IMG/VR virus record: IMGVR_UViG_3300014613_000020
Span: 34,980-98,979 of that record
Direction: 5' to 3' (one strand)
Length of the DNA stretch: 64,000 nt
DNA from: a virus
Shown piece after piece: positions 22,157-51,181 of the stretch; the stretch's first letter is position 1; every line of letters begins with the position of its first letter. The translations under genes and the position numbers were made by a program. The notes below the pieces were generated by a model. It did no database searches and was not told where the DNA came from. It saw nothing but the letters and a program-made list of their open reading frames with translations.

Positions 22157-23236
22157 ATGATAACGACACATAGGAATGTACAGAAGGTGACGTTCGGTGA
22201 AAGAAGCAGATATAAGTTGCCATTATTGACACAGACAAGAGGATGGACTTTAGTCTTAGTTGATGACTATTTTCGCACTAATCCTGTCTTACTAGGAGGT
22301 ATTATCTGTGGTAATAATATGCTTCTTCACTACATCGATACATCTGTTGAACCATCTGTTGATAGGATTGATGAACTGATAGAGCTCTATTTAGATCGTC
22401 CAGAAGGCCACGATAGAATTTTGCCAGGATGTATTGTAGGTATAGGTGGGGGTTCAACTCTAGATACCGCTAAGGCTGTCAGCATTCTACTTACTAACCC
22501 AGGCAAGGCGGAAGATTATCAAGGATGGGATTTGGTAAAGAATCCGTCTATTTACAAGATCGGCATTCCCACGCTATCAGGCACAGGCAGCGAATCCTCA
22601 AGAACCTGTGTTCTAACCAACAAAGAGAAAAATCTAAAACTGGGAATAAACAGCGATTACAGCATGTTTGACGAGATTATACTGGACCCTGACTTGACTA
22701 GAACTGTGCCAAGAGACCAGTTTGTGTACACGATGATGGACACGTATTATCATTGTACTGAATATATGAGTGGTATGGAACGGAACATGATCACTGATTC
22801 TCTGGCATATGAGGCAAGTCTTCTTTTATTTGACGTTATTTGGGGTAAAAAAGATATACTCGAATTCCGTGTAAGGGAAAAAGTTATGGTCGCTTCTTAT
22901 TTAGGAGGCACGGCGGCTGGTTGTACTGGGATTGTACATCCATTTTCGGCGGGACTGAGCATGGTATTGGGTATCAGACATGGACTAGCGAATTGTATTG
23001 CTGCCTGTTCTAACGATGATCTTTTTAGGGTATATAGGAGAGCAACACAGTTTTTTATGGGGAAGTTAGACGTAGAGTTGCCTGTAGGGGTATGTAATGG
23101 TCTCACAGACGAACAGCATAATCAACTCTATGAAGCTACAGTAGTGCATGAGAAGCCGCTTGCCAATGCCCTTGGGCCTGATTGGAAGGACATTTTAACG
23201 GGAGAACGAGTGCGAAGCATATTTGAGGGAATGTGA
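22157..23236 (+). CDS. iron-containing alcohol dehydrogenase family, KdnB-like ulosonate oxidase
   Basis: GIGGGSTLDTAKAVS, YQGWDLVK, IPTLSGTGSE, KLGINSDY, metal-binding His residues. Confidence 0.8.
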   Translation: MITTHRNVQKVTFGERSRYKLPLLTQTRGWTLVLVDDYFRTNPVLLGGIICGNNMLLHYIDTSVEPSVDRIDELIELYLDRPEGHDRILPGCIVGIGGGSTLDTAKAVSILLTNPGKAEDYQGWDLVKNPSIYKIGIPTLSGTGSESSRTCVLTNKEKNLKLGINSDYSMFDEIILDPDLTRTVPRDQFVYTMMDTYYHCTEYMSGMERNMITDSLAYEASLLLFDVIWGKKDILEFRVREKVMVASYLGGTAAGCTGIVHPFSAGLSMVLGIRHGLANCIAACSNDDLFRVYRRATQFFMGKLDVELPVGVCNGLTDEQHNQLYEATVVHEKPLANALGPDWKDILTGERVRSIFEGM

Positions 23237-23238
23237 TT

Positions 23239-23409
23239 ATGTGTAGTAAGACATCATCTTCAACATATGAATTTAGGATTATTCTTTGGGGTGATAAGAA
23301 TCATGTGGACTTTGAGCGCCAATTGAATAAATGGGGAAAGTTGGGATTTCGTTTTGTTTGTAGAGATGGGTCTTATTACGTACTAGAACGTGACTGCTCT
23401 CCCCGCTAA
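23239..23409 (+). CDS. 56-aa DUF4177-like protein whose last codons come from an IS end
   Basis: YEFRII...LNKWGKLGFRFV...YVLER|DCSPR*. Confidence 0.55.
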   Translation: MCSKTSSSTYEFRIILWGDKNHVDFERQLNKWGKLGFRFVCRDGSYYVLERDCSPR

Positions 23410-23425
23410 AGCAGGGAGCTTTCTG
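23390..23425 (-). mobile_element. isolated IS200/IS605-type right-end remnant
   Basis: Minus strand GAAAGCTCCCTGCTTTAGCGGGGAGAGCAGTCAC: subterminal hairpin followed by a TCAC end. Confidence 0.7.
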
Positions 23426-23469
23426 GCGCAATTTCTTGTAAAATGAGATATATCTTAAAAGGAGATTGA

Positions 23470-24666
23470 ATGAACTGGAAAATACCATTTAGCGGGCGCA
23501 GCCACAAATACACAAACTCAGAAATTGATACTGTTGTCGATACTATGCGGTTGGCAGACCCACTCACGCAAGGAAGATATAGGAATGAGTTTGAGAGGAA
23601 GTTCTCAAACTACCTAGAGACAGGCAGTAGAAGCTATGCTGTATGCAATGCTACTGCGGCTTTGGAATTGGCTGCTCAGTTGTGTCAGTTTGACGATGGT
23701 GATGAGGTTATCATTCCTGCTCACACATTCACGTCAACGGCATACCCGTTTGTCAAATATGGTGCTAAAATCGTATGGGCGGACATAGATTCTGATACGC
23801 ACGTTGTCACTGCGGATACTATACATAAATGCATTACTGATAGGACGAAGGCTGTAGTGGTGGTGCATCTGTATGGGTACATGGCTGACATGCGGAATAT
23901 CATTGAAAGTGTGCGAGATATTCCTTTTGTGATAGAGGACGCTGCTCAGGCATTGGGGACCAAGCAGGTGATGTCGTCCGGACGTAGAGAGATTACTACG
24001 AATTGGTATCAGACGGCTGGCACTTTTGGTGATTTTGGGGCATTCTCATTGCACTCACACAAGAATATCACAACATTGGGTGAAGGTGGTATTCTTTTAG
24101 ACAATAAGGGATATGATGAAGTCATACCGATGCTACGCCATAATGGGCATTGTGGCTATCCGGAACGAGAAGATTACTGGATTCCTGCTATGGGGAATGT
24201 AGACCTGCCAATGCTGCAAGGCAAATATCTCATGCCCCACAACTTCTGTCTGGGTGAGGTAGAGTGTGCCCTTGGCACTCAATTGCTAAAACGAATAGAC
24301 ATTATCAATTATCAAAAACGAACAAGAGCTATAGAATTTATTGATGCCCTTGCTGACTATCCGCAACTAAAATTCCACAGAGAACCGACAGAGAGACACA
24401 ATTATCATCTGTTGGTCGCTGAGATGGTAGATGGGGACAGAGACGAGTTCATGCGTAAAATGGCATATGAGCATGGTATACAGTGTGTAGTACAGTATAT
24501 GCCGCTATATAGATATCCACTTTATCAAAAATTGGGATTGGGGGATGCTGACTGCCCGGTGACAGACAAGTTCTATGACAATATGGTGTCGTTTCCATTC
24601 CAACACTCGCTGAATGATGGTGAGATAGACTACATGCTTGGATGTGTGAAGGAGAGCCTAGAATGA
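23470..24666 (+). CDS. DegT/DnrJ/EryC1/StrS PLP-dependent sugar aminotransferase
   Basis: NATAALE, PAHTF, VVVVHLYG, IEDAAQA, FSLHSHKNITTLGEGG. Confidence 0.92.
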   Translation: MNWKIPFSGRSHKYTNSEIDTVVDTMRLADPLTQGRYRNEFERKFSNYLETGSRSYAVCNATAALELAAQLCQFDDGDEVIIPAHTFTSTAYPFVKYGAKIVWADIDSDTHVVTADTIHKCITDRTKAVVVVHLYGYMADMRNIIESVRDIPFVIEDAAQALGTKQVMSSGRREITTNWYQTAGTFGDFGAFSLHSHKNITTLGEGGILLDNKGYDEVIPMLRHNGHCGYPEREDYWIPAMGNVDLPMLQGKYLMPHNFCLGEVECALGTQLLKRIDIINYQKRTRAIEFIDALADYPQLKFHREPTERHNYHLLVAEMVDGDRDEFMRKMAYEHGIQCVVQYMPLYRYPLYQKLGLGDADCPVTDKFYDNMVSFPFQHSLNDGEIDYMLGCVKESLE

Positions 24667-25010
24667 CAAAATGGGAGTATATATGGATGTGGTTTATTCA
24701 TGGAATTGAAGCAGATTCTATACAAATTACAGAAATGCTAAATCGAAAAGGTCGGCAGGGATGGGAGGTTTTGTTCATTGGGATATATGAAGACAAGACA
24801 GGCTGCCTGATGAAACGTCCTATGGAGGATTGTTGTAAACAAAAAGAAGATGATGCGCTTAAACCATGTCCTCATTGTGGAGGAGCTGCTACGATTGAGG
24901 AGACTGATGGGGGTGAAAGAATTGTGATCAAATGTAAAATGTGTGGTTGCTGTACTGATTTTTGTTTTTCTTATGGTTGTGCAATGAGTTTGTGGAATAG
25001 GCGAATCTGA
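24663..25010 (+). CDS. DUF4177-like plus Lar (restriction alleviation)-like zinc-ribbon fusion
   Basis: KWEY..LNRKGRQGWEV; LKPCPHCGG...CKMCG...WNRR. Confidence 0.65.
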   Translation: MTKWEYIWMWFIHGIEADSIQITEMLNRKGRQGWEVLFIGIYEDKTGCLMKRPMEDCCKQKEDDALKPCPHCGGAATIEETDGGERIVIKCKMCGCCTDFCFSYGCAMSLWNRRI

Positions 25011-25040: not shown

Positions 25041-26285
25041 CTACAAGGAACTAGAAAGGTTAGGGTCTAATCGTGATGCTCTACGATCATGTACCCCATC
25101 AGGCCAGAACCCAACGGTTCTAGTCTTATCGGAATTATCCGACAGGGCGTTGTCAGAAAGCCCTTGGTGATGAAGACGTGCCCCACCACCAGCGATGTTA
25201 GCCGAAGCTATGGAGTCACAATTATCCTGGAATCCACACTTGACACATCGGAATTGAGATTGAGATGGACGATTGGAACGAGTTGCATGACCACATCTTG
25301 GACAGGTACGGGATGTTTGTCGAGGGTCAATAAACAAAACAGGGATATCATGCCGTTTGGCTTTGTACTCAACAAAATCTGTCAATTGTCTGAAGGCCCA
25401 ACTGTTCAACATGCGGTTGAATCGCTTACTGGCATATATTCTGTCTCTAATGCCGTCCAATCGCTCAAAAACTATGATAGGATTTTTGTATTGCAAGGCA
25501 ATTTCGACGATATGTTTGCTGATAACATGGTTCATATTGGACATCCATCGACTTTCTTTGCCATGCATGAACTTGATTTTATCCAACCTGTTTGCTTTTT
25601 GATACCGCCGTCTGATGTCTGCAAAATGCTCTCGTCTATGCCTAATTGCTTTACCATCGAAGATAATCACCCCATCGGGAGTAGATATGGTAGCGATACG
25701 CACTATGCCCAAGTCAACACCTATGAACGCAGGTTCACCGTCACAGACGGTAGGTATGTGGGAGATTCTTAGTGGAAGCACCACGAACCACTTTTTATTA
25801 CGACGAAACATCTTAGCATCACCATAGACATACTGCATTTTATCTTGGAATTTGGCAGGAACAGAAAGAGGAAGCCAGATATAATGACCACGTTTGCCAG
25901 TAGAAACGCGGAGAACAAAATTATTGTCTCTTTTAATAATGGCATAGGCATTGACGCCAAGTCCGATGTTATTTGTCTTGTTCACGGTGGGGAACGATGT
26001 ATGCTTCTGGTGCTTGGACTTTTGAAGGCCATAATAGCTACGAACCAGAGCTACAACCTGAGCAATTGCCACACGAGCATAATCAGAAGGCAACTTAGTT
26101 TCAGCACGTATTGCATAATAGCTGGCATGGTGAATACGATTGCGGTCACTGGTATGCATCTTTTGTGCCATATTAAGACCTATCTGCACAGCATCAGAGA
26201 ATCCATGTGCCATTGTATTAAGGAAGTCAGCTTTGCAAACCGTTGGTTTCTTGATAGCAATGATAACAGTTTCTTGTCTCTGCAT
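25041..26285 (-). CDS. tnpB: RNA-guided endonuclease TnpB
   Basis: RuvC-I GVDLG, RuvC-II VFERL, zinc finger TSRTCPRCG..FRCVKCG, RuvC-III NCDSIASANI; catalytic D/E/D all intact. Confidence 0.95.
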   Translation of the reverse strand: MQRQETVIIAIKKPTVCKADFLNTMAHGFSDAVQIGLNMAQKMHTSDRNRIHHASYYAIRAETKLPSDYARVAIAQVVALVRSYYGLQKSKHQKHTSFPTVNKTNNIGLGVNAYAIIKRDNNFVLRVSTGKRGHYIWLPLSVPAKFQDKMQYVYGDAKMFRRNKKWFVVLPLRISHIPTVCDGEPAFIGVDLGIVRIATISTPDGVIIFDGKAIRHRREHFADIRRRYQKANRLDKIKFMHGKESRWMSNMNHVISKHIVEIALQYKNPIIVFERLDGIRDRIYASKRFNRMLNSWAFRQLTDFVEYKAKRHDIPVLFIDPRQTSRTCPRCGHATRSNRPSQSQFRCVKCGFQDNCDSIASANIAGGGARLHHQGLSDNALSDNSDKTRTVGFWPDGVHDRRASRLDPNLSSSL

Positions 26286-26291
26286 AACTTA

Positions 26292-26320
26292 ATTATAGCA
26301 CAAATGTGTAGTTTTGTCAA
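26292..26320 (-). promoter_or_regulatory. perfect-consensus promoter for leaderless tnpB
   Basis: Minus strand TTGACA-17 bp-TATAAT-6 nt-ATG. Confidence 0.85.
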
Positions 26321-26345
26321 ATTCAAATTTAATGGGGGATGAAGT

Positions 26346-27335
26346 ATGAACATAGTCTTTCGAGTAATAGCCAACAACCAAGTAGGCACAGGGCATGTGC
26401 ACAGAGCCCTAACATTAGCAAACGTTTTTGCACAAAACAACAAGGTGTCGTTTGCTTGTCTTGAAGATGATATTCAGTTGGTTCAAGAGATTGTAGGATC
26501 ACGATTCCATATCTTGACTGTACCGCCACAAATTGATGTTGGGTATGCTAGAACCATAGGTGCTGATCTGTTAATCAATGACATGCTTGACACAGACGCA
26601 GAAACCTTAAAGAGAGTCAAAGGTTCTGGTATAAAAGTGGTCAACTTCGAGGATTTGGGCAGTGGCGCTATAGAGAGTGATTTGACTATCAACGCACTTT
26701 ATCAATCTCCACAATTTGAAGGAGGAAACGTGTTGTGGGGGATTGACTACTATTTACTGAGAGATGAGTTTTTGGCTGTGCAACCAAGGCGATTCTCACA
26801 GGTAGTCGAGACTGTGCTGATTACATTTGGCGGTACAGACCCGACAAACTTGACACAAAAGACGCTAGAAGTAGTGGGACCCTTGTGCAGGGATGCGGGA
26901 CTTAATCTATATGTCGTGGTAGGGCCTGGGTATAGCCACCACGAACAGCTAGAAACGTGGATTCGCGGATTCAATTATGGTAAACTCATGCACTTCAGGC
27001 AGACCGGTTACATGGCGAGTTTAATGAGCAACGCCGACTTCGCGTTTACTTCTAATGGTCGGACGGTGTATGAGTTATTGCACATGAATGTACCATCTGT
27101 GGTGATAGCACATCACGAGCGGGAGAACACTCATGATTTTGCTCATGTGCAAACAGGGTTTATGAATTTGGGGGTTTATAAACATGGTTACACTGAGGAA
27201 TGGATAGGCGCGGAGTTTGATGCGTTATTATCAAGAACTGACCATCGCTATATGCTATTCAGGAACATGATGGATTACGATTTGACCCCTAACAGACAGA
27301 GAGTAGTACAGAAGATTATGGAGGCGACAGAGTGA
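26346..27335 (+). CDS. SpsG/PseG-like GT-B fold protein (nucleotide-sugar hydrolase or transferase)
   Basis: VGTGHVHRALTLA, LRDEF, LITFGGTDP, GRTVYE. Confidence 0.85.
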   Translation: MNIVFRVIANNQVGTGHVHRALTLANVFAQNNKVSFACLEDDIQLVQEIVGSRFHILTVPPQIDVGYARTIGADLLINDMLDTDAETLKRVKGSGIKVVNFEDLGSGAIESDLTINALYQSPQFEGGNVLWGIDYYLLRDEFLAVQPRRFSQVVETVLITFGGTDPTNLTQKTLEVVGPLCRDAGLNLYVVVGPGYSHHEQLETWIRGFNYGKLMHFRQTGYMASLMSNADFAFTSNGRTVYELLHMNVPSVVIAHHERENTHDFAHVQTGFMNLGVYKHGYTEEWIGAEFDALLSRTDHRYMLFRNMMDYDLTPNRQRVVQKIMEATE

Positions 27336-27556
27336 GAAGGAGACTTGTAAAGTTACCATCTATGCTACTTGGCTTAATTACGCTTATTCCAATTACAGTG
27401 TTGTTTTATACATTTGTTTGGATAGCAGATATTATAGAGGACATGATTACAATAAGCGTGGTGGTCTCTTCCTCTATCAAATTTATCTTTCTTAGTTCTA
27501 TGCTCTTGTTTGTGATTTGGATGGTTGGGGAGGCTGTAAAGGAGGATTTGGAATGA
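27332..27556 (+). CDS. small membrane protein
   Basis: Two hydrophobic segments; coupled ORF. Confidence 0.55.
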   Translation: MRRRLVKLPSMLLGLITLIPITVLFYTFVWIADIIEDMITISVVVSSSIKFIFLSSMLLFVIWMVGEAVKEDLE

Positions 27557-28266
27557 ACAAAGTTGTTGCAGTCATACAGGCACGAATGGGTAGCAAACGG
27601 CTACCTAACAAGATGATGTTACACCTGAATGGCTATCCAATCGTAGAATGGGCTTGGAGACGAATCAGTAAGTGTAGAGAGGTTAATGAGGTAGTGGTAG
27701 CAATTCCCCTCTCCACAAATAATCTACCATTGTACTCACATTTAATACATATAGGCGCTAATGTTATATATGGCTCTGAGGAGGATGTACTGGGCAGAGT
27801 ATACAAAGCTGCATGGTCATATGAAGCTGATTATGTAGTTCGTGTCTGTGCCGATAATCCATTTGTGTCATGGACTGTGGTGGATGATCTTGTCAGAGAA
27901 TACAAGGAAAGTAATTTAGACTATGCTTATAATCATATACCCATAGGAAATACTTATCCCAATGGATTGGGCGCAGAGATTGTTTGTATTGATCTATTGC
28001 GTGATCTCAATCATCCAGGATTTGATACACTATCAAAGGAGCAGCATGAACACATATTCAACTATGTATGGGACAATTGGCAGAATTTCAGAATGGGAGT
28101 ATTAGGAATATCAGGAATACTATCAATGTGTAGGCGGATATACCCCTGGATGCGGTTGGATATAGACACAATGGGCGATTATCAAAAGGCCATAGAAAGC
28201 GGAGTGACAATTGACATGGATGCATTGGAGGTGGTAAAAGCATATGCGAATATTAGACGTATTTAG
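27553..28266 (+). CDS. SpsF-like CMP-ulosonate cytidylyltransferase
   Basis: IQARMGSKRLPNK, GSEEDVLGR, VRVCADNP, RLDIDT. Confidence 0.9.
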   Translation: MNKVVAVIQARMGSKRLPNKMMLHLNGYPIVEWAWRRISKCREVNEVVVAIPLSTNNLPLYSHLIHIGANVIYGSEEDVLGRVYKAAWSYEADYVVRVCADNPFVSWTVVDDLVREYKESNLDYAYNHIPIGNTYPNGLGAEIVCIDLLRDLNHPGFDTLSKEQHEHIFNYVWDNWQNFRMGVLGISGILSMCRRIYPWMRLDIDTMGDYQKAIESGVTIDMDALEVVKAYANIRRI

Positions 28267-29299
28267 AGGCTATGAGCCGGGAAAGCTGATCCTGCGGGAT
28301 ATTTGCGTTATCGCTGAGGCGGGAGTAAATCATGAAGGGGATTTGGATTTAGCCTATAGACTCGTGGATGAAGCAGCGGATGGTGGGGCTGATGCCATAA
28401 AATTCCAAGCATACACGGCTGGCAAACTGGCATCGGTAAACTCACCTGCATATTGGGACACGACAGAAGAAACGACATTAAGCCAATATGATCTATTCAG
28501 GAAATATGATAGTTTCGGTCCGAACGACTATGAGAACATTAAACTGCGATGTGACGCCAATGGGATTGACTTTCTTTGCACGGCATTTGACACGGAATCT
28601 ATTGAGTTTATCAATGATCTGGTAGATGTTCATAAGATTGCGTCCGCTGACATAACGTGTAGGCCACTGATAGAACACGTATCAACTCTTGGGAAACCGG
28701 TTCTAATGTCGACAGGGGCGGCATCATTGTTGGAAATACAGATAGCTATTGATTGGCTAGGCTACTTTCCGGCATTGCTTCATTGTGTATTGAATTACCC
28801 CACGTCAAACGAGAATGCTAATCTGGAGCGAATTCAATCACTCCATCGTGAATTCCCAATCTGTCCGATAGGCTATTCAGACCATACTGTTCCTGATGGA
28901 ATGATGAACATTCTAGCCGCCGTCTTGTTGGGAGCTATAATAGTCGAGAAGCATTTTACTTTTGACAAGACGCTACCAGGCAATGACCATTATCATTCAA
29001 TGGACAAGGACGATCTTATCCTGTTTAGGGAGAAATGGAAAGCGATGTGCGACACGCTTGGGACAGGTGAGATAGATCCAACGAAGAATCAAGAATTAGC
29101 ACGTCATCACGCCAGGCGCAGTCTAGTCACTACTAAGACATTGCCGATGGGCCATATCATAGGGAATGGTGACTTGACTTGGAAACGGCCAGCGCATGGT
29201 TTGATGCCATACCATTTAGCCTGGGCAAGAGGTCGGAAGACGACTAGAGAACTGCCAGAGGACACTATCGTGGTGAGGGATGATCTGAATGGGTATTGA
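28244..29299 (+). CDS. N-acetylneuraminate synthase family (NeuB/SpsE/PseI/LegI-like) with SAF domain
   Basis: IAEAGVNHEG, AIKFQ, KIASAD, STGA, LHCVLNYP, GYSDHT, EKHFT, KRPAHG. Confidence 0.95.
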   Translation: MRILDVFRGYEPGKLILRDICVIAEAGVNHEGDLDLAYRLVDEAADGGADAIKFQAYTAGKLASVNSPAYWDTTEETTLSQYDLFRKYDSFGPNDYENIKLRCDANGIDFLCTAFDTESIEFINDLVDVHKIASADITCRPLIEHVSTLGKPVLMSTGAASLLEIQIAIDWLGYFPALLHCVLNYPTSNENANLERIQSLHREFPICPIGYSDHTVPDGMMNILAAVLLGAIIVEKHFTFDKTLPGNDHYHSMDKDDLILFREKWKAMCDTLGTGEIDPTKNQELARHHARRSLVTTKTLPMGHIIGNGDLTWKRPAHGLMPYHLAWARGRKTTRELPEDTIVVRDDLNGY

Positions 29300-30578
29300 T
29301 CGTGTGGAGCAAATAGAATCTTACATGAATCGACTGTTCCCCATATGTCGCAGCATCACAGGAGATGGCAATCGAAAGACGCTACATATCCTACAGGAAT
29401 TGATACCTGAGCTAAGGCTGATAGAATACCCGTCAGGAACTAAGGTTTATGATTGGACGATTCCTGATGAGTGGAATATTAAGGGCGCACACATAGTAGA
29501 AAATAAAAGCTTTGGCAGGATTGTTGATTTTGCCAAGAATAATCTACATGTGATGAGCTATAGTGAGCCTGTTGGTAAGATAGTTGGACTTGATGAACTT
29601 GCTCCGCATTTACATTATAGCGGAACAAGGCCATTTGACATTCCATACAAAATGTCCTATTATCAAAGGAATTGGGGATTTTGCATAAGCCAAATGCAAT
29701 ACATGCATGATTTTGATGATTTCCGTAATGGTCTTTGGGCGGTCTACATCGACTCCACATTGAAACCGGGAAGTCTGACAGTAGGTGAGTTGCTGATACC
29801 TGGCAGGTCATCACAGGAGTATCTAATCTCAACTTACATCTGCCATCCATCAATGGCAAATGACAATCTCAGTGGCGTGGTGATGACTGCCTTTCTTGCC
29901 AGGGAATTATCAAAGATGGATTTGAACTACAGCTATCGCATCCTGTTCGTTCCTGAGACTATAGGTCCAATAGCGTACATGGCACACAACGAAGAGGCGA
30001 TGAAGAAGATAGATTGCGGATTGGTGGTGTCGTGTGTGGGTGGGCCTGGGCTTAACATAGACTATAAAGAATCGTGGGACGATGAACATTGGATAAATGA
30101 TGTTGCCGGTTCGGCGTTACTAGATTTATGGTATAGAGGACTTCTACGTAGAGGCTATCCTCATGACTGTCATGGGAGTGATGAGCGGCAATACTCTTCT
30201 CCAGATTTTAGGATTAACATGGTGACATTGTCATCTGAGATGTACTATGATTATCCCGAGTATCATACCTCTGCTGACAATCTTGAATTTGTGTCAATGC
30301 CGAGGATAAATGAGATGCTAAATCGGTATCTCAGAGTGATAGACAATATGGACAAGAACGTGCCTGTCAGTGGGTTGGTTGCTTCGGGGGAACCGTTTTT
30401 ATCAAACATGGGCATCACAGACACGTCTGACTTGTGCAATACCGAATTGAATGCTATACTGTGGGCGCATCATCTTGGCGAATGCACGACATTCGATGTG
30501 GCTAAGAAGTTGGGGATATCAGTGAGTGAAGTATATGATATTCTAAAAGAGAGAGGGCTGTTGAATGTTATTACCTGA
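29289..30578 (+). CDS. DUF4910 aminopeptidase-like protein of polysaccharide loci, with C-terminal HTH
   Basis: LFPICRSITGDG, DWTIPDEW, STYICHPSMANDNLSG, PETIG, GSDERQY, YPEYHTSAD. Confidence 0.9.
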   Translation: MGIDRVEQIESYMNRLFPICRSITGDGNRKTLHILQELIPELRLIEYPSGTKVYDWTIPDEWNIKGAHIVENKSFGRIVDFAKNNLHVMSYSEPVGKIVGLDELAPHLHYSGTRPFDIPYKMSYYQRNWGFCISQMQYMHDFDDFRNGLWAVYIDSTLKPGSLTVGELLIPGRSSQEYLISTYICHPSMANDNLSGVVMTAFLARELSKMDLNYSYRILFVPETIGPIAYMAHNEEAMKKIDCGLVVSCVGGPGLNIDYKESWDDEHWINDVAGSALLDLWYRGLLRRGYPHDCHGSDERQYSSPDFRINMVTLSSEMYYDYPEYHTSADNLEFVSMPRINEMLNRYLRVIDNMDKNVPVSGLVASGEPFLSNMGITDTSDLCNTELNAILWAHHLGECTTFDVAKKLGISVSEVYDILKERGLLNVIT

Positions 30579-34360: not shown

Positions 34361-34373
34361 GAAAGGAACAGAA

Positions 34374-36180: not shown

Positions 36181-36552
36181 GTGGAGTCTGACATAGTAAT
36201 TCTCTTGGCGTCGGTCATGCTAGGAGAAGCCGGAGTACTAGGGGAAGAAGCAATGCTTGCAGTAGGTCACGTGATAATGAATCGTGTGTCTAGCGACTTC
36301 TTCCCCAACACAGTCACGGAAGTGGTAGAACAGCCAAACCAATGGAATGGACGCACTATCCCACACGGATACGAAGAAGCACTGGCAAGGCAAGTTCTCA
36401 GACGTAACCACGACCCAACAAAAGGGATGCTGTACTCCTTAAGCGAGAACGACAGGCGGAAGCTAAAGTTCCCAATCGGCGATAAGATATATGAATGGAA
36501 AGTATTCAAGATTCACCTGTACAAGGAATGGCCTACTTTTGCACAAAAGTGA
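36181..36552 (+). CDS. SleB/Hydrolase_2 cell-wall hydrolase
   Basis: GEA...AVGHVIMNRV...FPNTVTEVV.QP.QW. Confidence 0.85.
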   Translation: MESDIVILLASVMLGEAGVLGEEAMLAVGHVIMNRVSSDFFPNTVTEVVEQPNQWNGRTIPHGYEEALARQVLRRNHDPTKGMLYSLSENDRRKLKFPIGDKIYEWKVFKIHLYKEWPTFAQK

Positions 36553-36694
36553 ATTTGACATAATTTTACCAAAATGCCACAATGTAAAAATGGAGAAAAA
36601 TTTGAATGGGGAAAAACGAATTATTATCGAACCAACTATGTCGGCGGATGGAGTAACTGCGCGGAGGAAAATAGAACATGGAGAGTAATTTGAC

Positions 36695-37333
36695 ATGGTA
36701 ACGTGGGAGCAGTGTTACAGACGAGGGGATGGGGCGATGGTATATCCGGATGAAGTGATAGTGCAGACATTACATCATCTCAAACTGCATCAGGGTGAGG
36801 CGTTGGACGTGGGATGCGGCAGTGGTCGCCACCTCAAGATGTTGTGGGATAGGGGATTTATAGCACGGGGTGTGGACGGTTCAATAACAGCAAGAGACAT
36901 AGCTGTGGCACTGGGATTGCCAAGGGGGTCGATAACGGTTGACACGTTTCCACCTTTGAGATTCACATCGGGCTTCTTCGATTTGATATTAGCAGTTAAC
37001 GTCTTAGAGCACAATATCAAATTGGACAGAGAAGAGCTGCTGAGGGAAATACACAGAGTGATGAAGCCTGGTGGGTGCTTCATATCGAGGCATGTGCTGT
37101 GGGAGAGTTACATACCAAAAGGTGCTGGTGAAATGATTGAGGATAGGACATTTGAACGTGAGAATGACACCATACTTCATTGTTTCCGCAAAGGGGAAAT
37201 ATTGGAGATGTGGGAGGGTGTGGGATTCAAGAACTTGCAGGTTGGCAAACTGAGCGGATGGTATCCGTGGCTGCCTTGGGAGGAAGACAGTCAGATGTAC
37301 GTGGTGGCGTACAAGTCAACGAATAGGATATGA
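36695..37333 (+). CDS. class I SAM-dependent methyltransferase
   Basis: YPDE, LDVGCGSGRH, FDLI, EIHRVMKPGG. Confidence 0.9.
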   Translation: MVTWEQCYRRGDGAMVYPDEVIVQTLHHLKLHQGEALDVGCGSGRHLKMLWDRGFIARGVDGSITARDIAVALGLPRGSITVDTFPPLRFTSGFFDLILAVNVLEHNIKLDREELLREIHRVMKPGGCFISRHVLWESYIPKGAGEMIEDRTFERENDTILHCFRKGEILEMWEGVGFKNLQVGKLSGWYPWLPWEEDSQMYVVAYKSTNRI

Positions 37334-37767
37334 CAAAGATGATACACATAAAACGAATGTTAATCGGTTTGGCAATAGCCGTGGGGTTGACGTTGCTTTC
37401 TCTGGTGGTTGTCTGCGTTCTAAAATGGACTGGAAGTTTCGTTGGTGATATTTCTGATGAGTTCATAATAGGCATTATAGTTACTTGGGAACTTTTTATA
37501 GCATATTGCATTGGGTATGCTTTTGTAAAGAAAAGATAAAAAGGAGACACGACATTGGCCTACCTGAAGGCAATCAAGTTGATTTGCAATGCCCTTGGCT
37601 GTGAAGCAAGGGCTTCGGTAGATGTATTTGGCGAAGCACAAAATCATTACAGCTCCTACTGCAAACGCCATGCCAAGGTTGTCTTGGCAAGAGTCAACCA
37701 GCAAGAGGAGGAAAATCGGAGTCGGTTAAACTTATTGTCAGAAGTGAATAAGGATGAGAGAGGATAA

Positions 37768-38184
37768 ATGAACAAGAAAGAGATGTATACTAATAGACGA
37801 TGCCATGACTGCCTAGTCTCTGAGGGTGAAACACATCTATATGGATGCGATATGGAGAAATGCCCGTTTTGTGGCAGGCCTCTCATTACCTGTGGTTGTT
37901 GTTACAAACATTTGGGTATAGATTGCTCGAAGGGCACATGGTGTTACAGTAATGGGTTAACAGAAAAACAGACTGACAGGTGGCTCAGTATTTTGAACAA
38001 TAGAGGTAGGGCACCATACATCATTACACCAGTACACTGTGCAAGATGCCTCGAGCCATATCCAGATTTCTTCTTCTTGGAAGATAAAGAGTGGGAGCAA
38101 ATTGTTCCTGTGTATCTGCTAGAAGAAGTTCTGTGCAGCGAATGCTATCAGCTTATCAAGAAGGGATATGATGTGATACCATGA
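37768..38184 (+). CDS. Cys-rich phage protein
   Basis: CHDC..H..GCDMEKCPFC..CGC. Confidence 0.65.
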   Translation: MNKKEMYTNRRCHDCLVSEGETHLYGCDMEKCPFCGRPLITCGCCYKHLGIDCSKGTWCYSNGLTEKQTDRWLSILNNRGRAPYIITPVHCARCLEPYPDFFFLEDKEWEQIVPVYLLEEVLCSECYQLIKKGYDVIP

Positions 38185-38534
38185 TTAAATGCGGAGAATG
38201 CAAATATTGGGATGAAGATCATGAAGTTGCAAAGAACGAACACTATATCTTTCCACTTCCCCCAAAATTTGGAAAGTGTGTAAAGATAGAAAATGCTTAT
38301 AAGAATGTTAGGTATGCTTGGCTGGTGGACGCGCAGGCATGTTCTGAGGTCTACTTGCTCTGTGAACCCACATTTGGTTGTGAACTGGGGGAAGAGGGGA
38401 AAATAGAAGAAGGGCAATATAGTGCCTATGAAGAATATTGTAAAGTCTCTTGGGAGGAAAGAACTAAGTTAAGGGTGGAGAAGGTATGGGAAGCTAAGAA
38501 ACATAGGCCTTATATTACAGCTGGTTCTCATTAG
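38181..38534 (+). CDS. Cys-containing hypothetical protein
   Basis: CGECKYW...PTFGC; shares motifs with 55375-55869. Confidence 0.6.
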   Translation: MIKCGECKYWDEDHEVAKNEHYIFPLPPKFGKCVKIENAYKNVRYAWLVDAQACSEVYLLCEPTFGCELGEEGKIEEGQYSAYEEYCKVSWEERTKLRVEKVWEAKKHRPYITAGSH

Positions 38535-38553
38535 GAGAGAGGAAAGAGGAAAG

Positions 38554-38952
38554 ATGAACAGACGTGATTTTCTAAAACGATTGTTGCCAAGTGTGATTGG
38601 TGTTACAATAAGACTAACCACGCAAGAGAAGGAAATGACATCGGAGGAGTTTGCGGACTTGGTGGCCGATAGAGTGCTGAACAAGCCATCTCCACCGGTA
38701 ACTTACAGTAATGATGAACTAATAAAAGTAAAAATAATAAACAGTCCAAACTATGATGATTCAAGGTGGTGGATTACATCACCAAGTGCATATAGCTCCC
38801 AATATCCGCAGTATGATTCTGCCAAGGATAACAAATATAGTGGACTACCGGGCACGTTTGCATTACACTACACACCGGAACAGATGTCTAAGGCGCTAAC
38901 ACCTAAAGAATGGGCAGAATTGAATGAGGAGGAGACGGATGGCGAAGTTTAG
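38554..38952 (+). CDS. hypothetical protein with twin-arginine-like N-terminus
   Basis: MNRRDFLK. Confidence 0.6.
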   Translation: MNRRDFLKRLLPSVIGVTIRLTTQEKEMTSEEFADLVADRVLNKPSPPVTYSNDELIKVKIINSPNYDDSRWWITSPSAYSSQYPQYDSAKDNKYSGLPGTFALHYTPEQMSKALTPKEWAELNEEETDGEV

Positions 38953-40848
38953 GAAGAGACCTATTATAATAGAGGCTTATCTGCGATTGCACCTCTCGGC
39001 ACAGTTGTTACTTATGGCCGCACAGATTTGGTTTGCGCCCCGCGACGGCCAGTCAAGAAGGGATATGATGTGACACCATGATTAAATGTGGGGAATGTAG
39101 AGCGTGGAGGGAGATATGGCAGATCGTAATGTAACCAGTTTAGTGGATTTTGAGCTTAACGATGATGAGTGTTTACCAATAACAAAATGCATGTGTGGGG
39201 CAGAGTTTGGTCATTGGAAGTTCATGATTAGCGTTTATAGGGATCATGCTTATAGATGTCCTAAGTGTGGCAGGGGGCTTTACTTTGAACTTCAAATCAC
39301 AGTATACGAAGTGACAGATAATACAGAATTGGAAGGATGAGGATGGTGGAAGCAGCAAGTTGTAAGTACTGGTCGAAGAAGGGATATTGTTCAACCTATT
39401 CCTTAGAGCGTCCGAGTGTCCTTCATGTGTGTCCTATATGTAAGGGGAGAGGAGCTGTTCCTGCAGGGTTTTACGATGGGGATACATGGAGAGCAACTAC
39501 GGTGCCGGAGAGGTGTCGTAGTTGTCGGGGAAGGGGGTACATACTGGCATGACTATAAGGAGGGGATATGGTAACTACTTGTATGACGGTTTGTGATGTA
39601 TGTGGTAAGGTGTGGGCGGTGGATATGTGGGTGTTATCCATTGGGGATGGCAATTGGATGGATGTGGAATTGTGTTCGTTTGGCTGTTTAGTAAAATGGG
39701 TGGAGAGGTATGGGGAATGCGTCAACGCATAGGGGGTGGAGACCTGCTTATCCAAGAAAGGATGGGACTGATGGCATGGAACCTATATGTATGGGAGGGT
39801 GTACTTTGTGATTACACTTGTGGCATGATTGTAGCTGTTGCTAGGAGTGCAGAGGAGGCTAGAGAGATTGCCGAGAAGGAAAATTCATTGAAATCGACCG
39901 TATCCCGTCGAACGAGGGGAGATATTGTCTATGATATGGGATCAGGCTATTCATCATATTTAATTGGCGACTGGGAACTAGGTCTCCCCAAAGCTTGGGT
40001 TGTTTGGGGTGGGGGATAGAGGGGAGGACAAGATGAAATGTACAGATCATAAACCGGTGCTGTGGATAGCAGGTGGTGGTCCTGGAGTGCCAACATTATA
40101 TGGCTATGGGTACTGGACTGGTCCACACGACGATCTACTTTGTGTACTTCCCAATATCAAGTCTAGATGGCGGGCGGAGCAGTTGTTGTCCCCGTTTTCG
40201 AGAATAAAATGGTTGGCACTTACCAAGTTTAAGATTAAGCACTGGGCAGAGTCTGACTGGTGTGAATAGTCATATTTTGTTATAGAAGGAGGATGATTAA
40301 TGGAAACGGCGTGGATTTTTGAGGTGATAGCGTGGACAGGGGTGGTCTTGTCTGTGTGTTCTATGTGTCGTGTGCAGAAGAGGATATACTGTCGTGAGGA
40401 GGATGCCCATGTCTTGCCTGGCGACTTTGCGGCGCTGTTATGGGTTAGCGTGCTAATGTCGTTATCTGGGCATATCTTAGGGTGGTGGTAGTTATGCGTC
40501 AACACATTGGAGGGTAAATGACTACAAGACTGCTGGTTCATGATTTGATTATTCCTGCGGGTACACCATTCGAGTGTGTGGATGGGGTAAAGAGAGTGTT
40601 TGTCAGGGGCAACTACGAGGCATTGATTGCTATGGGGCCGGACTACACTGTCTCGGTGGTGATGGATGAAGAATTATTGGAGGAGGAAGAAGAATGATAG
40701 TAGTAGCGTGGATAGGAATAGTATAGTCTATATCGTTTATACTGGCATTGATATTCACTGACCAGAAAAAGGATTCAGGGAATGTTATTGTGGGATTGGT
40801 ACAGATGGACCTAGTGGTATTGATGGCCGGTAGAATTCTGGGGTGGTG

Positions 40849-40986
40849 GTGAACCACCGGGAGAGGTTCAATGCCGTTCTCCACTTCGAGCCCGCAGACA
40901 GATTCCCGTTGTGGGAGATGGGGTTCTGGGATGAAACATTGGTTCGTTGGTACGTGGAAGATGGGTTTGAGGTGGGGAAAGCTTAA
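40849..40986 (+). pseudogene. orphaned 5' fragment of the UROD-family gene at 41869
   Basis: (M)NHRERFNAVLHFEPADRFPLWEMGFWDETLVRWYVEDGFE versus MNSRQRFNAVMHFKPADRFPLWEMGFWDETLVRWYVEDGFE. Confidence 0.92.
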
Positions 40987-40987
40987 A

Positions 40988-41872
40988 ATGTCTAAACAGG
41001 AATTACACAGAATAAAACAATTGGAAAAACAGGTATGTTTACAAAGGGGCGAGATTGATTCGTTAATTGACGTATTAAAGAAATCTGGAATTGTAAGAGA
41101 GTGGAAGAGCAGGACAAGATGGGCCGATGGCGATAATAAATTGCATATAGTAAGTAGAATAGTCTTTCCTATTGTGTCTGAGTGTTTAGAAGAGGTGGTT
41201 AGGTATCTAAATCTAACTTTTGTTCGACTTCCGGAATACCCACATCGAATTATAGTAGTTGATAGAGACTTATTAAATTTAGGAGCCGAAAAGGACTTTA
41301 CTATAGCGGAATATCGTTATTATCAGCATGAATTAGAACTACAAGCTCCTGCGTTTGTTGAGACAATACTAGGTATAGAAAATATAACAAGTGTGGTAGA
41401 ACTAGGTTGTGGTTTAGGTATCATTCTTCGTGAATTTGCCAAGCAAGGCGTTAAAGTAATTGGATATGAAAAGTCAATTGACGCCATTAAAAATACAGAA
41501 GCACCAGAGAGAAGTATCTTCTATAGGGATTTGCGTAATCCTTGGATTGTCACTGATAAATATGACTTATGTATTTGTACTGAGGTGGTAGAACATTTAG
41601 AGTCGGAGTACGCTTTTGGTGTTATTCGATGTATAACGAATTTAAGTGATTTAGTGTATTTTACGGCTGCCTCACCGGAGCAAAAAGGAAAGAACCATGT
41701 GAACCTACAATCATTTAGTTATTGGGAAAAGATATTTAATCATTATGGTTTCTACTATGATGACTTGACAACAAGGGTAATTAAGGTGGGAATGAAACAA
41801 CGTGCCCCAGATATTAATAAGGGACATAGATTGTGGTATAATGGATCTGTGTATAGAAAGAGCACTAAATGA
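40988..41872 (+). CDS. class I SAM-dependent methyltransferase with N-terminal extension
   Basis: VELGCGLG, YDLCICTEVVEHL, FTAASPEQKGKNHVN. ATG 40988 is the likely start. Confidence 0.85.
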   Translation: MSKQELHRIKQLEKQVCLQRGEIDSLIDVLKKSGIVREWKSRTRWADGDNKLHIVSRIVFPIVSECLEEVVRYLNLTFVRLPEYPHRIIVVDRDLLNLGAEKDFTIAEYRYYQHELELQAPAFVETILGIENITSVVELGCGLGIILREFAKQGVKVIGYEKSIDAIKNTEAPERSIFYRDLRNPWIVTDKYDLCICTEVVEHLESEYAFGVIRCITNLSDLVYFTAASPEQKGKNHVNLQSFSYWEKIFNHYGFYYDDLTTRVIKVGMKQRAPDINKGHRLWYNGSVYRKSTK

Positions 41873-42963
41873 ATAGCAGACAACGCTTCAACGCTGTCAT
41901 GCACTTCAAGCCTGCGGACAGGTTCCCACTATGGGAGATGGGGTTCTGGGACGAGACTCTGGTTCGTTGGTATGTGGAAGATGGATTTGAGATAGATAAA
42001 GAGTATCCATTCCGGAGCATTGGCCTTGATTGGCCCTATCCGATATGGAATATAGCAAGTAGCGCATTTGGACTGTTTGACAGCAGGGTACTGGAGACAG
42101 AGGGAAACAGGGAACGGTTTCTCGACGAGTACGGGCGGATAGGTGTTCGACTGACGACGGGGACTAGCGTTCCTGGGTGGGAAGAGTTCCCCGTGACGGA
42201 TAGGGAGTCCTGGAAGTTTATTCGCAGCAGATATGAGCAACGGGGGGTGTTCAATCCGCAGCTAGAGAACTTTCAGCATGTCATCACATCAATGCCTGAG
42301 ACGCGAACCCACCCCTATGGAGTGATGGCGGGTTCGTTCTTTGGTGAACTGCGTTCTCTGATGGGGTTGGAGGGCATATCTTATATGCTATATGATGATC
42401 CTACACTGGTACACGAGATACTGGAGTTCTTGTCAGAGTTCACAAAAGCCAATCTCTCACTCTTATTGCAACATATAAACTTTGACTTTGTCAAGTTCTG
42501 GGAGGATATGGCATACATTAATGGTTCGTTCGTATCACCAAGAGTGTGGAAGGAGTTCTTTGCGGAGCCTTACAGGAACGTGTTGGAAGTGGTATACAAC
42601 TCAGGGACTGACATAGTAATGGTGGACTGTGATGGGGACATAAGTGAGTTGATTCCATTGTGGCTGGACGTAGGCATAAACTGCCCGTACCCAATGGAGG
42701 CTAGATGCAATAATCTATTAGAATACAGGAAGGTGTATGGCAAGAACCTAAAAATGCTAGGTGGTGTGGACAAGGAACGGGTGGCAAAGGGAAGGTATTC
42801 CATGGACAGTCTGATACTAAGAGACATACGCAAGCTGGTTCGAGCAGGTGGATACATCCCCCACATCGACCATGCCATTCCGCCATCAATATCATTTGGT
42901 GATTACAAATATTATAGGAATCTGTTGATGCTAATTAGCGATGAGGTGTGTGCTGATGTTTAA
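41869..42963 (+). CDS. uroporphyrinogen decarboxylase / MtaA-CmuA family TIM-barrel protein
   Basis: LMGLE..YDDP, WEDMAY, VDCDG, GGVDK, GGYIPHIDH. Confidence 0.85.
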   Translation: MNSRQRFNAVMHFKPADRFPLWEMGFWDETLVRWYVEDGFEIDKEYPFRSIGLDWPYPIWNIASSAFGLFDSRVLETEGNRERFLDEYGRIGVRLTTGTSVPGWEEFPVTDRESWKFIRSRYEQRGVFNPQLENFQHVITSMPETRTHPYGVMAGSFFGELRSLMGLEGISYMLYDDPTLVHEILEFLSEFTKANLSLLLQHINFDFVKFWEDMAYINGSFVSPRVWKEFFAEPYRNVLEVVYNSGTDIVMVDCDGDISELIPLWLDVGINCPYPMEARCNNLLEYRKVYGKNLKMLGGVDKERVAKGRYSMDSLILRDIRKLVRAGGYIPHIDHAIPPSISFGDYKYYRNLLMLISDEVCADV

Positions 42964-43390
42964 GTTAGAGTTAAAATGTTATAGAAGAGATGGTGCTCCT
43001 TTGGATGAGGCAAGTACTGGTGGTAGTTTGATTAGATATGTCATTTTTGACAAAAATGGTGTCATGGACTGCTATAATTGTAATTTACACACGATAGAAT
43101 GTGACCATCTTCCTGATTGGTGTGGATGGCCCAATAAGGAAAATAATGTCTAAAATAAAATGCCCAAAGTGTGGTTCGTTCGCATTGACACAAGGAATGA
43201 GTTCTGCAACATTGAAGTACTGTCCACGGTTCTCCGACGAAGATGGCTTCTGGCATATACATGATTCAAATGCGGTAACAAATAGGTTTCAGTGTCGCAA
43301 ATGTCATTATACCTTTGCCAAGAAAGAGAAACTAAAACCGTGTTGGTGCGGGTGGTCTAACAGCGGGCCTTTGGTAGAAATGGGAAATGA

Positions 43391-44413
43391 ATGACTGAGA
43401 AAGTAATAGTTGTAATAAGGGCTAGAACTAGAAGCCACCGTCTACATGCTAAGGTGTTGCAACCTATAAACGATGTTCCTGCTATAATCAGGGTAGCGGA
43501 ACGAGTCAACCTCGTCAAAAATCTCGTTGACCAAGTGGTGTTTTGCATTCCTGGTGGGTCGTATGATGATGAACTGGCAGATACACTGGATGACCATTTT
43601 GGTCTGAATCCGTTCTATGTCGTCCACCGCGGTTCTGAGAATAACGTGGCGACTCGCGTGTGGGATGCCATACAGGAGAATGATGGTGACATTATCATCG
43701 AAGGGCTGAGCGGTGACGCCCCACTGTGCTACATGGAATTTCTAGAGCCTGCGTTGGAATATCTGAGAACAGACAGAACTCTGGACTGCGTTGTCCACTA
43801 CAATCCTGATGGGCGATTTACCATAGAACACACAGCTTGCTATGCATGGCCTGTCAGGCGTTCGTGGTGGGAAAAGACGGTTGCGTACATACCAAAGAGT
43901 GATTCGCAAGATGCGTTTGAACAGCATCCAACACTGAGATTCCAATGGTACCCCGAAGAATACAATATTGGATTCCTCGAGGATAAACTGTTTTTTGAGT
44001 TGTGCAAGGACAACCTCGGAAGGCCGCGGGACACACATTGGTGTCTGGATGAAGCAGAGGATTTGGTCTTCCTCAATATCATATTTGATGCGTTGAATGG
44101 TGAGAGACCTATTAGATTAAGGGAAGCTGTGGCACATCTTAACGCGAATCCACACATTCGGTCCGCCAACGCAGCGGTAACGGAATCCGTGCTGACGTAT
44201 CCAACGGAACTGTACAGGCGGAAGTGGGCCAGGATTTATGGCGAATGGTCTATGCCACAGGGAGTGCAGGCGGCATATTGTGACAAGAAACTATGCTATC
44301 TCGGATATGTTCTTCCTGACAGTTCTGCGCTTCACAGGCCAAATGGAGACATAATCAGAGACGCCACAGTCGTAACGTGTATCTGTGGAGCCAACAGACG
44401 ATGGCATAGATGA
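43391..44413 (+). CDS. second SpsF-like cytidylyltransferase with C-terminal Cys-rich extension
   Basis: IRARTRSHRLHAKVL, RGSENNVATR, GDAP, LDEAEDL. Confidence 0.8.
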   Translation: MTEKVIVVIRARTRSHRLHAKVLQPINDVPAIIRVAERVNLVKNLVDQVVFCIPGGSYDDELADTLDDHFGLNPFYVVHRGSENNVATRVWDAIQENDGDIIIEGLSGDAPLCYMEFLEPALEYLRTDRTLDCVVHYNPDGRFTIEHTACYAWPVRRSWWEKTVAYIPKSDSQDAFEQHPTLRFQWYPEEYNIGFLEDKLFFELCKDNLGRPRDTHWCLDEAEDLVFLNIIFDALNGERPIRLREAVAHLNANPHIRSANAAVTESVLTYPTELYRRKWARIYGEWSMPQGVQAAYCDKKLCYLGYVLPDSSALHRPNGDIIRDATVVTCICGANRRWHR

Positions 44414-51179: not shown

Positions 51180-51181
51180 TA

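Follow-up and report, generated by a model that had tools for sequence, protein, structure and literature searches.

Why would a tailed phage carry, between the genes for its large terminase and its portal protein, a whole set of enzymes from families that build rare acidic sugars? The question is raised by a 64,000-nucleotide stretch (hereafter the window, whose positions are used throughout) that forms the final 64 kb of the 98,979-bp IMG/VR virus record IMGVR_UViG_3300014613_000020 (G000), rated complete by CheckV. The answer favoured here, with a probability of about 0.5, is that the locus makes a modified ulosonic sugar from host precursors, activates it with cytidine monophosphate (CMP), and most likely uses it to glycosylate proteins of the phage particle, the chemistry being what the enzyme families would predict. 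As judged from gene order, base composition and trees, the cluster itself is an old, vertically inherited phage trait of about 14 enzymes, present in at least three phages: G000, a sister phage (IMG/VR 3300017971_000228; G001) and a partial phage contig (L213). G000 is known from metagenomes only.

Enzymes between terminase and portal

The cluster lies between the large terminase (TerL) and the portal protein, boundaries that were placed with PHROG, while the genes in between were identified by Pfam, NCBIfam and PDB sequence searches (Table 1). The terminase is 52% identical to that of Streptomyces phage TurkishDelight, in which the gap between TerL and portal holds 4.3 kb of small genes, as against 26 kb here. 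None of 80 IMG/VR TerL relatives (identity 60% or less) was found to carry the sugar genes, and among those relatives with a detectable portal, this gene follows directly 3' of TerL. From left to right, the interval encodes a VWA-domain protein, a tRNA-His, a KdnB-like oxidase of the iron-dependent alcohol dehydrogenase (Fe-ADH) family, a first DegT-family enzyme (DegT1), a Lar-like protein, TnpB, a PseG-like hydrolase and a first cytidylyltransferase; then a NeuB-family synthase with a SAF domain, a DUF4910/DUF2172 protein, a second DegT-family enzyme (DegT2), a GNAT acyltransferase, a GT2 glycosyltransferase, a 365-residue toroid protein, a SleB-like hydrolase and a methyltransferase dependent on S-adenosylmethionine (SAM); and, after about 3.5 kb of small open reading frames (ORFs), a second such methyltransferase, a protein of the uroporphyrinogen decarboxylase (URO-D) family and a second cytidylyltransferase. 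All of these genes are on the plus strand except TnpB. The enzyme list of a preliminary description, made from the letters of the window, was borne out: each gene that it had named between TerL and portal lies where it had placed it, with Pfam, NCBIfam and PDB in agreement, and the B12-binding radical SAM and sulfatase-family genes that it had reported among the head genes were found at 53364-54740 and 55866-56978. It had left out the tRNA-His, the toroid protein (34302-35399) and the minus-strand TnpB, and with the last of these the interruption of the cluster.

The KdnB-like oxidase, DegT1, the PseG-like hydrolase, cytidylyltransferase 1 and NeuB form what is called module A below. The oxidase assignment, already proposed earlier, is strong: KdnB (PDB 5k8c) matches over the full length and is the top hit, 39 orders of magnitude better than the next Fe-ADH match that is not KdnB (6e-24), and both the GGGS NAD motif and the D/H/H/H metal ligands are intact. 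The ORF opens at a TTG at 22136, and the ATG at 22157, preceded by GGAAGGA and also the earlier choice, is the likelier start. DegT1, with the pyridoxal-phosphate (PLP) lysine motif SLHSHK, scores 189.5 bits with the PseC model (cut-off 423.5), and the PseG-like protein resembles PseG of PDB 3hbm (E 1.7e-9) in its N-terminal half only. The PseF model gives 24.4 against a cut-off of 205.7, and one cytidylyltransferase match, P0168, has 72% identity. NeuB has the TIM barrel followed by a SAF domain (PF08666, 30 bits, cut-off 21) by which the family is recognized. Its scores with the equivalog models are 283.5 for NeuB/NnaB (TIGR03569, cut-off 399.65) and 198.1 for PseI (TIGR03586, cut-off 340.25), its closest solved relative is SpsE from Bacillus subtilis, and its closest match, P0001, is 83% identical.

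The five genes that follow (module B) comprise DUF4910, DegT2, the GNAT acyltransferase, GT2 and the toroid protein. DegT2 is LegC/PseC-like in its N-terminal half and divergent in its C-terminal half, and retains a PLP lysine motif (SFGEGK). The GNAT protein is 42% identical to its counterpart in L213; neither it nor the URO-D-like protein has a solved relative in the PDB sequence search. The soluble GT2 enzyme conserves the DxD and ED motifs, and its predicted structure (pLDDT, the per-residue confidence score, 92.6) matches only generic GT-A folds such as TarP, RmlT and GalNAc-T. The toroid protein, always encoded beside GT2, has no match in Pfam, PHROG or NCBIfam and belongs to a rare family (44 clusters among 5.8 billion). 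The nearest folds to its model (pLDDT 88) are prenyltransferase beta subunits (Z 19.3) and sugar 2-epimerases (Z 14-16), and its neighbours in a protein atlas are LanC-like. The fold search gives no function, placing the protein only in the general alpha/alpha-barrel class. An invariant Cys-His-Asp-x-Asp-His patch may bind a metal, and candidate roles are those of an epimerase or of a partner of GT2 that activates the acceptor.

Further genes would complete the tailoring set. Methyltransferase 2 is made of a C-terminal part of 194 residues, which aligns with a 197-residue protein of G001, and an N-terminal extension of about 140 residues that the G001 enzyme lacks; in G001 the two methyltransferase genes also stand in the reverse order. 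The first ~38 codons of the extension copy the start of the URO-D-like gene, within a 115-nt repeat (40867-40981 and 41887-42001, 81% identity); a rearrangement in which the start of a gene was duplicated is the apparent origin. The URO-D-like protein has 286 family representatives at E<=1e-30. Cytidylyltransferase 2, with its Cys-rich tail, was seen in this phage lineage only: it is found in five clusters among 5.8 billion, one of them being G001, and the lineage would therefore be rare. In the head module, the radical SAM enzyme is 57% identical to its counterpart in L213 and probably belongs to the sugar pathway. The sulfatase-family protein carries S-D-P-N-F, kept in G001, in place of the C/S-x-P-x-R of sulfatases, and its matches to PDB sulfatases are weak; on this motif it may be a phosphatase or phosphotransferase and not a sulfatase.

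Table 1. Positions and supporting matches of the features discussed, with the pathway genes first and head genes, boundaries and passengers below; the last column gives amino acid identity to the counterpart in the sister phage G001.
Feature	Position	Strand	Evidence	Identity to G001
KdnB-like metal-dependent alcohol oxidase (Fe-ADH family)	22157-23236	+	PDB 5k8c (KdnB), E 3.5e-63, full length	54%
DegT-family PLP aminotransferase 1 (DegT1), oxidase partner	23470-24666	+	PF01041, 234 bits	66%
PseG-like nucleotide-sugar hydrolase (GT-B fold)	26346-27335	+	TIGR03590, 141.9 bits (cut-off 153.55)	46%
SpsF/KdsB-like cytidylyltransferase 1	27517-28266	+	PF02348 (CTP_transf_3), 75 bits	46-50%
NeuB-family ulosonate synthase with SAF domain	28244-29299	+	PF03102, 224.3 bits (cut-off 22.1)	
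DUF4910/DUF2172 peptidase-like protein (CA_C2195 family)	29289-30578	+	PF16254, 268 bits	
DegT-family PLP enzyme 2 (DegT2)	30565-31644	+	PF01041, 116 bits over residues 6-170	43%
GNAT acyltransferase, Acetyltransf_6/FemAB type	31857-32822	+	PF13480, 26.6 bits (cut-off 22); FemAB match weak	34%
Soluble GT2 (GT-A) glycosyltransferase	33040-33891	+	PF00535, 67.8 bits	
Toroid protein, 365 residues	34302-35399	+	(alpha/alpha)6-toroid model	
SAM methyltransferase 1	36695-37333	+	PF08241, 57 bits	48%
SAM methyltransferase 2	40871-41872	+	PF13489, 39.9 bits over residues 151-245	40% (C-terminal part)
URO-D-family protein (decarboxylase/methylcobamide-methyltransferase fold)	41869-42963	+	PF01208, 33.8 bits (cut-off 23.9)	46%
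SpsF-like cytidylyltransferase 2, Cys-rich tail	43391-44413	+	PF02348, 39.8 bits	
B12-binding radical SAM enzyme, head module	53364-54740	+	PF02310 and PF04055	56%
Alkaline-phosphatase-superfamily (sulfatase-family) enzyme	55866-56978	+	PF00884, 47 bits	50%
Ser/Thr/Gly/Ala-rich protein, 644 residues, beside major head protein	60903-62837	+	translation; no PHROG match	
Major head protein	59918-60808		phrog_1005	63%
TerS	19170-19703		PHROG family match	
Large terminase TerL, left boundary of insertion	19660-21231	+	phrog_2, E 2.6e-34	
Portal protein, right boundary	47424-48920	+	phrog_113, E 8e-73	56%
Promoter-like site, TTGACT, 17 nt, TATACT	21240-21268	+	repeat family D5	
VWA-domain protein, first gene 3' of promoter	21309-22049	+	PF00092, 28.2 bits; phrog_7371	no homologue
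tRNA-His (GTG), just 5' of sugar genes	22059-22129	+	ARAGORN	no tRNA at this position
Lar-like restriction-alleviation protein, inserted passenger outside the pathway	24642-25010	+	PF14354, 34.5 bits	no homologue
TnpB (IS200/IS605 OrfB, Cas12f-like), inserted in cluster	25041-26285	-	PF07282, 70.2 bits (cut-off 26.3)	absent
SleB-like cell-wall hydrolase	36181-36552	+	PF07486, 48 bits	no homologue

Descent of the cluster and its bacterial counterparts

The age of the cluster is best judged by comparison with G001, a complete genome of 98,106 bp with a 123-bp terminal repeat and 56.8% GC, against 45.6% here. It came to light in a NeuB profile scan, which showed NeuB-family proteins to be encoded on 41 IMG/VR contigs; when viral contigs were scanned with a single NeuB sequence, one distant locus was obtained. 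The sister phage has every enzyme of modules A and B in matching order, then the methyltransferases (exchanged as described above), the URO-D-like gene, cytidylyltransferase 2 and the portal, and its radical SAM and sulfatase-like genes likewise lie among the head genes. Synteny extends to 76 ORF pairs genome-wide, and the cluster proteins of the two phages are 34-66% identical, the portal and major head protein falling in the same range. In both genomes GT2 and the pathway stand between TerS/TerL and portal. The partial contig L213 (59% GC) has the matching right half, with its GT2 5' of the portal, and continues through the genes for portal, protease, radical SAM enzyme and sulfatase-like protein. 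The GC fraction of the cluster is close to that of the genome in each complete phage (0.437 against 0.462 here, 0.564 against 0.568 in G001). As for the phage-specific clade whose existence the preliminary description had proposed to check, quick maximum-likelihood trees place the phage copies in phage-only clades, with SH-aLRT supports of 92 for NeuB, 95 for the toroid protein and 98 for GT2; the GNAT tree lacks resolution. A NeuB fragment 100% identical to that of G000 occurs on an independent 29-kb contig. Among 50,697 phage records, megablast found no counterpart of the 22.5-kb region, and tblastn with NeuB returned three weak matches only. The earlier claim that this is no fresh host island is thus upheld by the synteny in G001 and L213, the ameliorated GC and the phage-only clades.

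The terminases of the two complete phages tell a different story from the rest of their genomes. That of G001 is T4-type (Terminase_6N/6C, L208:4845-6299) and unrelated to the actinophage-related enzyme of G000, so that, on these sequences, the terminase is a non-orthologous replacement beside a conserved sugar cluster. The sugar genes have thus been stabler than the neighbouring packaging enzyme. Moreover, the maintenance of a 14-16-gene pathway across a divergence that shifted GC by 11 points points to strong selection on the sugar. One local difference concerns G001, where His_Phos_1 and RF-1-domain genes lie between the URO-D-like gene and cytidylyltransferase 2 (L204:12971-13885); they are absent from G000.

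Both modules also occur in bacterial polysaccharide loci, a point that the preliminary description overlooked. The genes of module A stand in the same order, at 39-58% identity, in L101, a gammaproteobacterial single-cell genome, and in L103, an Acidiferrobacteraceae metagenome-assembled genome, with 56-58% identity for DegT1 in both and 41% for cytidylyltransferase 1 in L101. Both loci have a polysaccharide setting with Wza, Wzz and ABC-transporter genes; the neighbours in L101 are Wza-like, Wzz, GDP-mannose dehydratase, SIS-isomerase and ABC-transporter genes. The PseG-like protein of L103 carries a fused cytidylyltransferase domain (8306-9931), and its DUF4910 is joined to a domain weakly like polysialyltransferase/KpsS (11044-13377). 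The phages have no counterpart of this C-terminal domain, and the fusion hints at a role of DUF4910 near the transfer step. Module B is found in metagenome contigs of 25-75% GC (among L210-L222, of which the cellular origin is deduced from neighbouring genes only). In L220 it comes with a Wzx-type flippase. In L222 two genes for B12 radical SAM enzymes come directly 3' of the toroid gene, and the product of the first has 46% identity to the phage enzyme; this linkage of radical SAM to module B had also escaped the earlier reading. Also encoded in L222 are a radical SAM-SPASM enzyme, a C-methyltransferase and a LanC-like piece. A further contig (L214, 75% GC) has both modules, with the oxidase and aminotransferase genes close together. 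DUF4910 has been linked to spsE/spsF sugar clusters before (PMC4000134). Probably, then, a phage ancestor captured a bacterial surface-sugar pathway once and kept its soluble enzymes only.

Predicted product, acceptor and alternatives

Two absences, neither of which had been remarked on before, shape the predicted chemistry: that of a dehydratase and that of a known nonulosonate transferase. No 4,6-dehydratase of the short-chain dehydrogenase/reductase (SDR) type (PF02719, PF01370) was matched in the whole 98,979-bp genome, the control genomes all giving matches, nor in the G001 cluster, and no PseH-type or left-handed-helix acetyltransferase was found among the cluster proteins. Without an SDR 4,6-dehydratase, the hexose on which NeuB acts should still have its 6-hydroxyl, which would leave the ulosonate with a terminal CH2OH. 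KdnB oxidises that CH2OH in 3-deoxy-D-manno-octulosonic acid (Kdo), and the end-to-end KdnB match adjoins an aminotransferase in the phages as well as in L101 and L103; hence a terminally aminated NeuB product is proposed. The pathway would start from a host nucleotide sugar with an intact 6-hydroxyl, which the PseG-like hydrolase would cleave, and NeuB would join the free sugar to phosphoenolpyruvate. The KdnB-like oxidase would then convert the terminal CH2OH into an aldehyde and DegT1 the aldehyde into an amine, by analogy with KdnB and KdnA, which make 8-amino-Kdo (Kdo8N). One of the two cytidylyltransferases would activate the acid with CMP, module B would tailor and transfer the sugar, with the FemAB-type GNAT as a plausible N-acylating enzyme for the aminated product, and methyl or related groups would come from the two methyltransferases together with the URO-D-like protein and the B12 radical SAM enzyme.

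Where such a sugar would be placed is suggested by what the phages lack and by where the genes lie. Two tiny ORFs excepted, the cluster proteins have no clear membrane span, and no flippase, polymerase, ligase or membrane-anchored enzyme was found in the three phages. The one strong phage-type promoter-like site just ahead of the cluster, at 21240, likely starts a long transcription unit that includes the sugar genes, and its siblings in repeat family D5 (44689, 46219, 50381, 51217 and 54777) stand ahead of head genes. Since no membrane enzyme is present and the genes lie within the packaging/head operon, the acceptor is probably a cytoplasmic phage protein; cytoplasmic glycosylation of phage proteins is thus the probable route, by analogy with mycobacteriophages and from the head-type promoter family. 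In this head region, the radical SAM and sulfatase-family genes lie near those for an XkdF-type protease and the major head protein. A candidate acceptor is the 644-residue protein encoded beside the major head protein. This protein has repeated LNVSGS/LNISGC-like motifs, and its homologue in G001 has just 351 residues. It could serve as a head fibre or decoration protein and be the target of glycosylation, a role for which it is put forward by inference only. A bolder version of the proposal, which we hold to be rather doubtful, is that a novel 9-amino-type, N-acylated and methylated nonulosonic acid is attached to a Ser/Thr/Cys-rich head-associated protein by GT2 and the toroid protein, in a way unrelated to Maf or sialyltransferases.

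Several observations weigh against glycosylation of phage particle proteins by this sugar. No recognisable nonulosonate transferase is encoded: a whole-genome search at E<=1 gave no match to Maf (PF01973), and Capsule_synth (KpsC/S-type) is absent genome-wide. The DxD motif of GT2 is typical of enzymes using NDP-sugars (nucleoside diphosphate sugars), not CMP-sugars, and the folds that its model resembles include that of the wall-teichoic-acid transferase TarP. KdnA (PDB 5k8b) is not the nearest match of DegT1, ranking 23rd among its PDB matches (E 1.9e-21), and with two aminotransferases for one oxidase, one step donating a keto or aldehyde group is unaccounted for. Every equivalog model scores below its cut-off, and product, acceptor and chemistry alike are read from family membership. 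The trees, for their part, come from quick searches with SH-aLRT support only, and the NeuB hits P0001 and P0002 are counted as phage by assumption. Finally, in bacteria both modules serve cell-surface polysaccharides.

This last point leads to the strongest competing explanation, namely that the sugar remodels the host surface: host machinery or the phage GT2 would place it on lipopolysaccharide (LPS), capsule, teichoic acid or flagellin, where it would block superinfection or mask receptors during infection. The bacterial counterparts within surface-polysaccharide loci, with their Wza, Wzz, Wzx and ABC-transporter genes, fit such a purpose, as do the GT2 model, which matches TarP/TarS as well as protein transferases, and the missing dehydratase, which means reliance on host sugar metabolism. 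However, the phages lack flippase, polymerase and ligase as well as any membrane-anchored enzyme; in all three the genes lie between terminase and portal with their helpers among the head genes; and an outlay of ~22 kb seems costly for exclusion in a phage with no lysogeny genes detected in the window. We regard this explanation as unlikely, yet as a serious alternative. A second possibility is that the product, instead of a glycoconjugate on protein or envelope, is a glycosylated small molecule or cofactor, soluble or secreted, as from a natural-product pathway. It draws on the company of a B12 radical SAM enzyme, a URO-D-like protein, two methyltransferases, a FemAB-type acyltransferase and a toroid protein resembling LanC and prenyltransferases, and on the additional C-methyltransferase, radical SAM-SPASM enzyme and LanC-like piece of L222. 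It is improbable, given that the NeuB/cytidylyltransferase/PseG core is classical and always feeds glycoconjugates, and that no gene for a carrier protein, non-ribosomal peptide synthetase (NRPS), polyketide synthase (PKS), precursor peptide or exporter is present. Hypermodification of phage DNA against restriction is more improbable still. Some phage DNA glycosyltransferases do add Kdo-type sugars to 5-hydroxymethylcytosine (bioRxiv 10.1101/2023.12.21.572611), and the Lar-like gene could speak for an anti-restriction context, but TET/JBP (PF12851), the thymidylate-synthase family (PF00303) and C5-cytosine methyltransferase (PF00145) are absent genome-wide, leaving no known route to a hydroxymethyl acceptor, and the genes sit in the structural, not the replication, region. 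As for a recent host-derived island or an assembly chimera without a phage role, which the bacterial homologues of both modules at 39-58% identity, the TnpB and tRNA-His at the left edge (typical of mobile insertions) and the 80 TerL relatives without sugar genes might suggest, it is effectively excluded, on sequence comparison, by the shared order in phages of 46%, 57% and 59% GC at identities equal to those of portal and capsid genes, the ameliorated GC, the phage-only clades, the phage palindrome inside the cluster and the identical NeuB fragment on a separate contig.

Passenger genes and relation to known systems

Not every gene of the interval belongs to the pathway. The SleB-like hydrolase probably lies outside it. 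TnpB, of which each genome has one copy at most in the pair compared (one here, none in G001), shows a second domain under the cut-off (PF01385, 24.8 bits, cut-off 30.5), a sigma-70-like promoter matching 12/12 at 26320-26292 and a terminator at 25052-25036; two plus-strand ORFs over the same stretch (25089-25772 and 25845-26342) give way to it and are not taken to be genes. The palindrome TTTTGYRCAAAA, which the preliminary description had taken as a phage mark carried by the cluster, has 20 copies in the window, where 0.06 would be expected; of these, six are indeed in the cluster, between 22134 and 36548, and none at 36549-46224. One of the six (22134-22145) directly follows the tRNA-His. 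The stretch from 37.3 to 40.8 kb is specific to this phage and free of palindrome copies, and a 45-nt direct repeat (38156-38200 and 39053-39097, 93% identity) lies across small-ORF junctions. Strong promoters at 44649-44730, 46179-46260, 51176-51258 and 54737-54818 share a conserved element, TTTACG.AGAATTTACGA.CA, 5' of the -35 box; the site at 21240 keeps the core of this family but apparently not the upstream TTTACG.AGAATTTACGA.CA element. Further right, an HNH endonuclease gene (59074-59778, minus strand) lies between the scaffold-like and major head protein genes.

Among characterized systems, the Kdo8N pathway of Shewanella oneidensis (KdnB/KdnA; PDB 5k8c, 5k8b) also has the oxidase beside a DegT enzyme and a KdsB/SpsF-like cytidylyltransferase nearby. 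It differs in using KdsA where the phages have a NeuB-family synthase and in the identity of its aminotransferase, since DegT1 is not the closest relative of KdnA, whereas the phage version is also virus-borne and joined to many further tailoring genes. The pseudaminic acid pathway (PseB, C, H, G, I, F) and the legionaminic acid pathway of B. subtilis (SpsC, D, E, F, G, M; PMC7439481) share counterparts of PseG/SpsG, NeuB/SpsE, SpsF and DegT. However, no PseB, SpsM or LegB-type 4,6-dehydratase is encoded in the genome, and this absence, together with equivalog scores under the cut-off, means that by membership the locus belongs to neither the pseudaminic nor the legionaminic acid pathways. Neighbourhoods of the CA_C2195-type DUF4910 (PMC4000134) come closer in having NeuB/SpsE, SpsF, glycosyltransferases, methyltransferases and acyltransferases, but the phage set is fixed in a packaging/head operon, is without exporters, and has the KdnB-like pair and toroid protein in addition. 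On its gene content, the locus is distinct from the Pse-plus-Maf type, having no PseB or Maf and having instead the KdnB-like pair, module B with its toroid protein and B12-linked tailoring; in its working it would share some features with the Kdo8N pathway and others with the SpsE/F/G sets.

The usual view is that tailed phages are not glycosylated. As published exceptions, a literature search turned up only mycobacteriophages such as Che8, in which phage glycosyltransferases are described as glycosylating the virion (Freeman et al. 2023, as cited in PMC11256854). In these phages too, the glycosyltransferase genes are associated with structural genes, and here as there the glycan would be expected on capsid or tail proteins. 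The differences are that G000 and its relatives have a pathway of ~14 enzymes for a rare acidic sugar, and that this one is known from genes. The mycobacteriophages reportedly encode transferases only and use host sugar nucleotides. The same literature search found no paper describing a phage-encoded nonulosonate pathway, and a large phylogeny of nonulosonate synthases does not mention viruses.

If the sugar decorates virions, it would affect the charge and stability of the particle, its adsorption, and its recognition by hosts and immune systems, with relevance to phage ecology and to engineered phages. Testable enzymology is offered by a KdnB-type pair acting on a NeuB product, by DUF4910, by a rare toroid family paired with GT2 and by a B12 radical SAM enzyme in sugar tailoring. 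Should the bolder version hold, it would amount to a new natural sugar and a new mechanism of protein glycosylation. The bacterial counterparts, lastly, suggest that the same sugar exists on bacterial surfaces.

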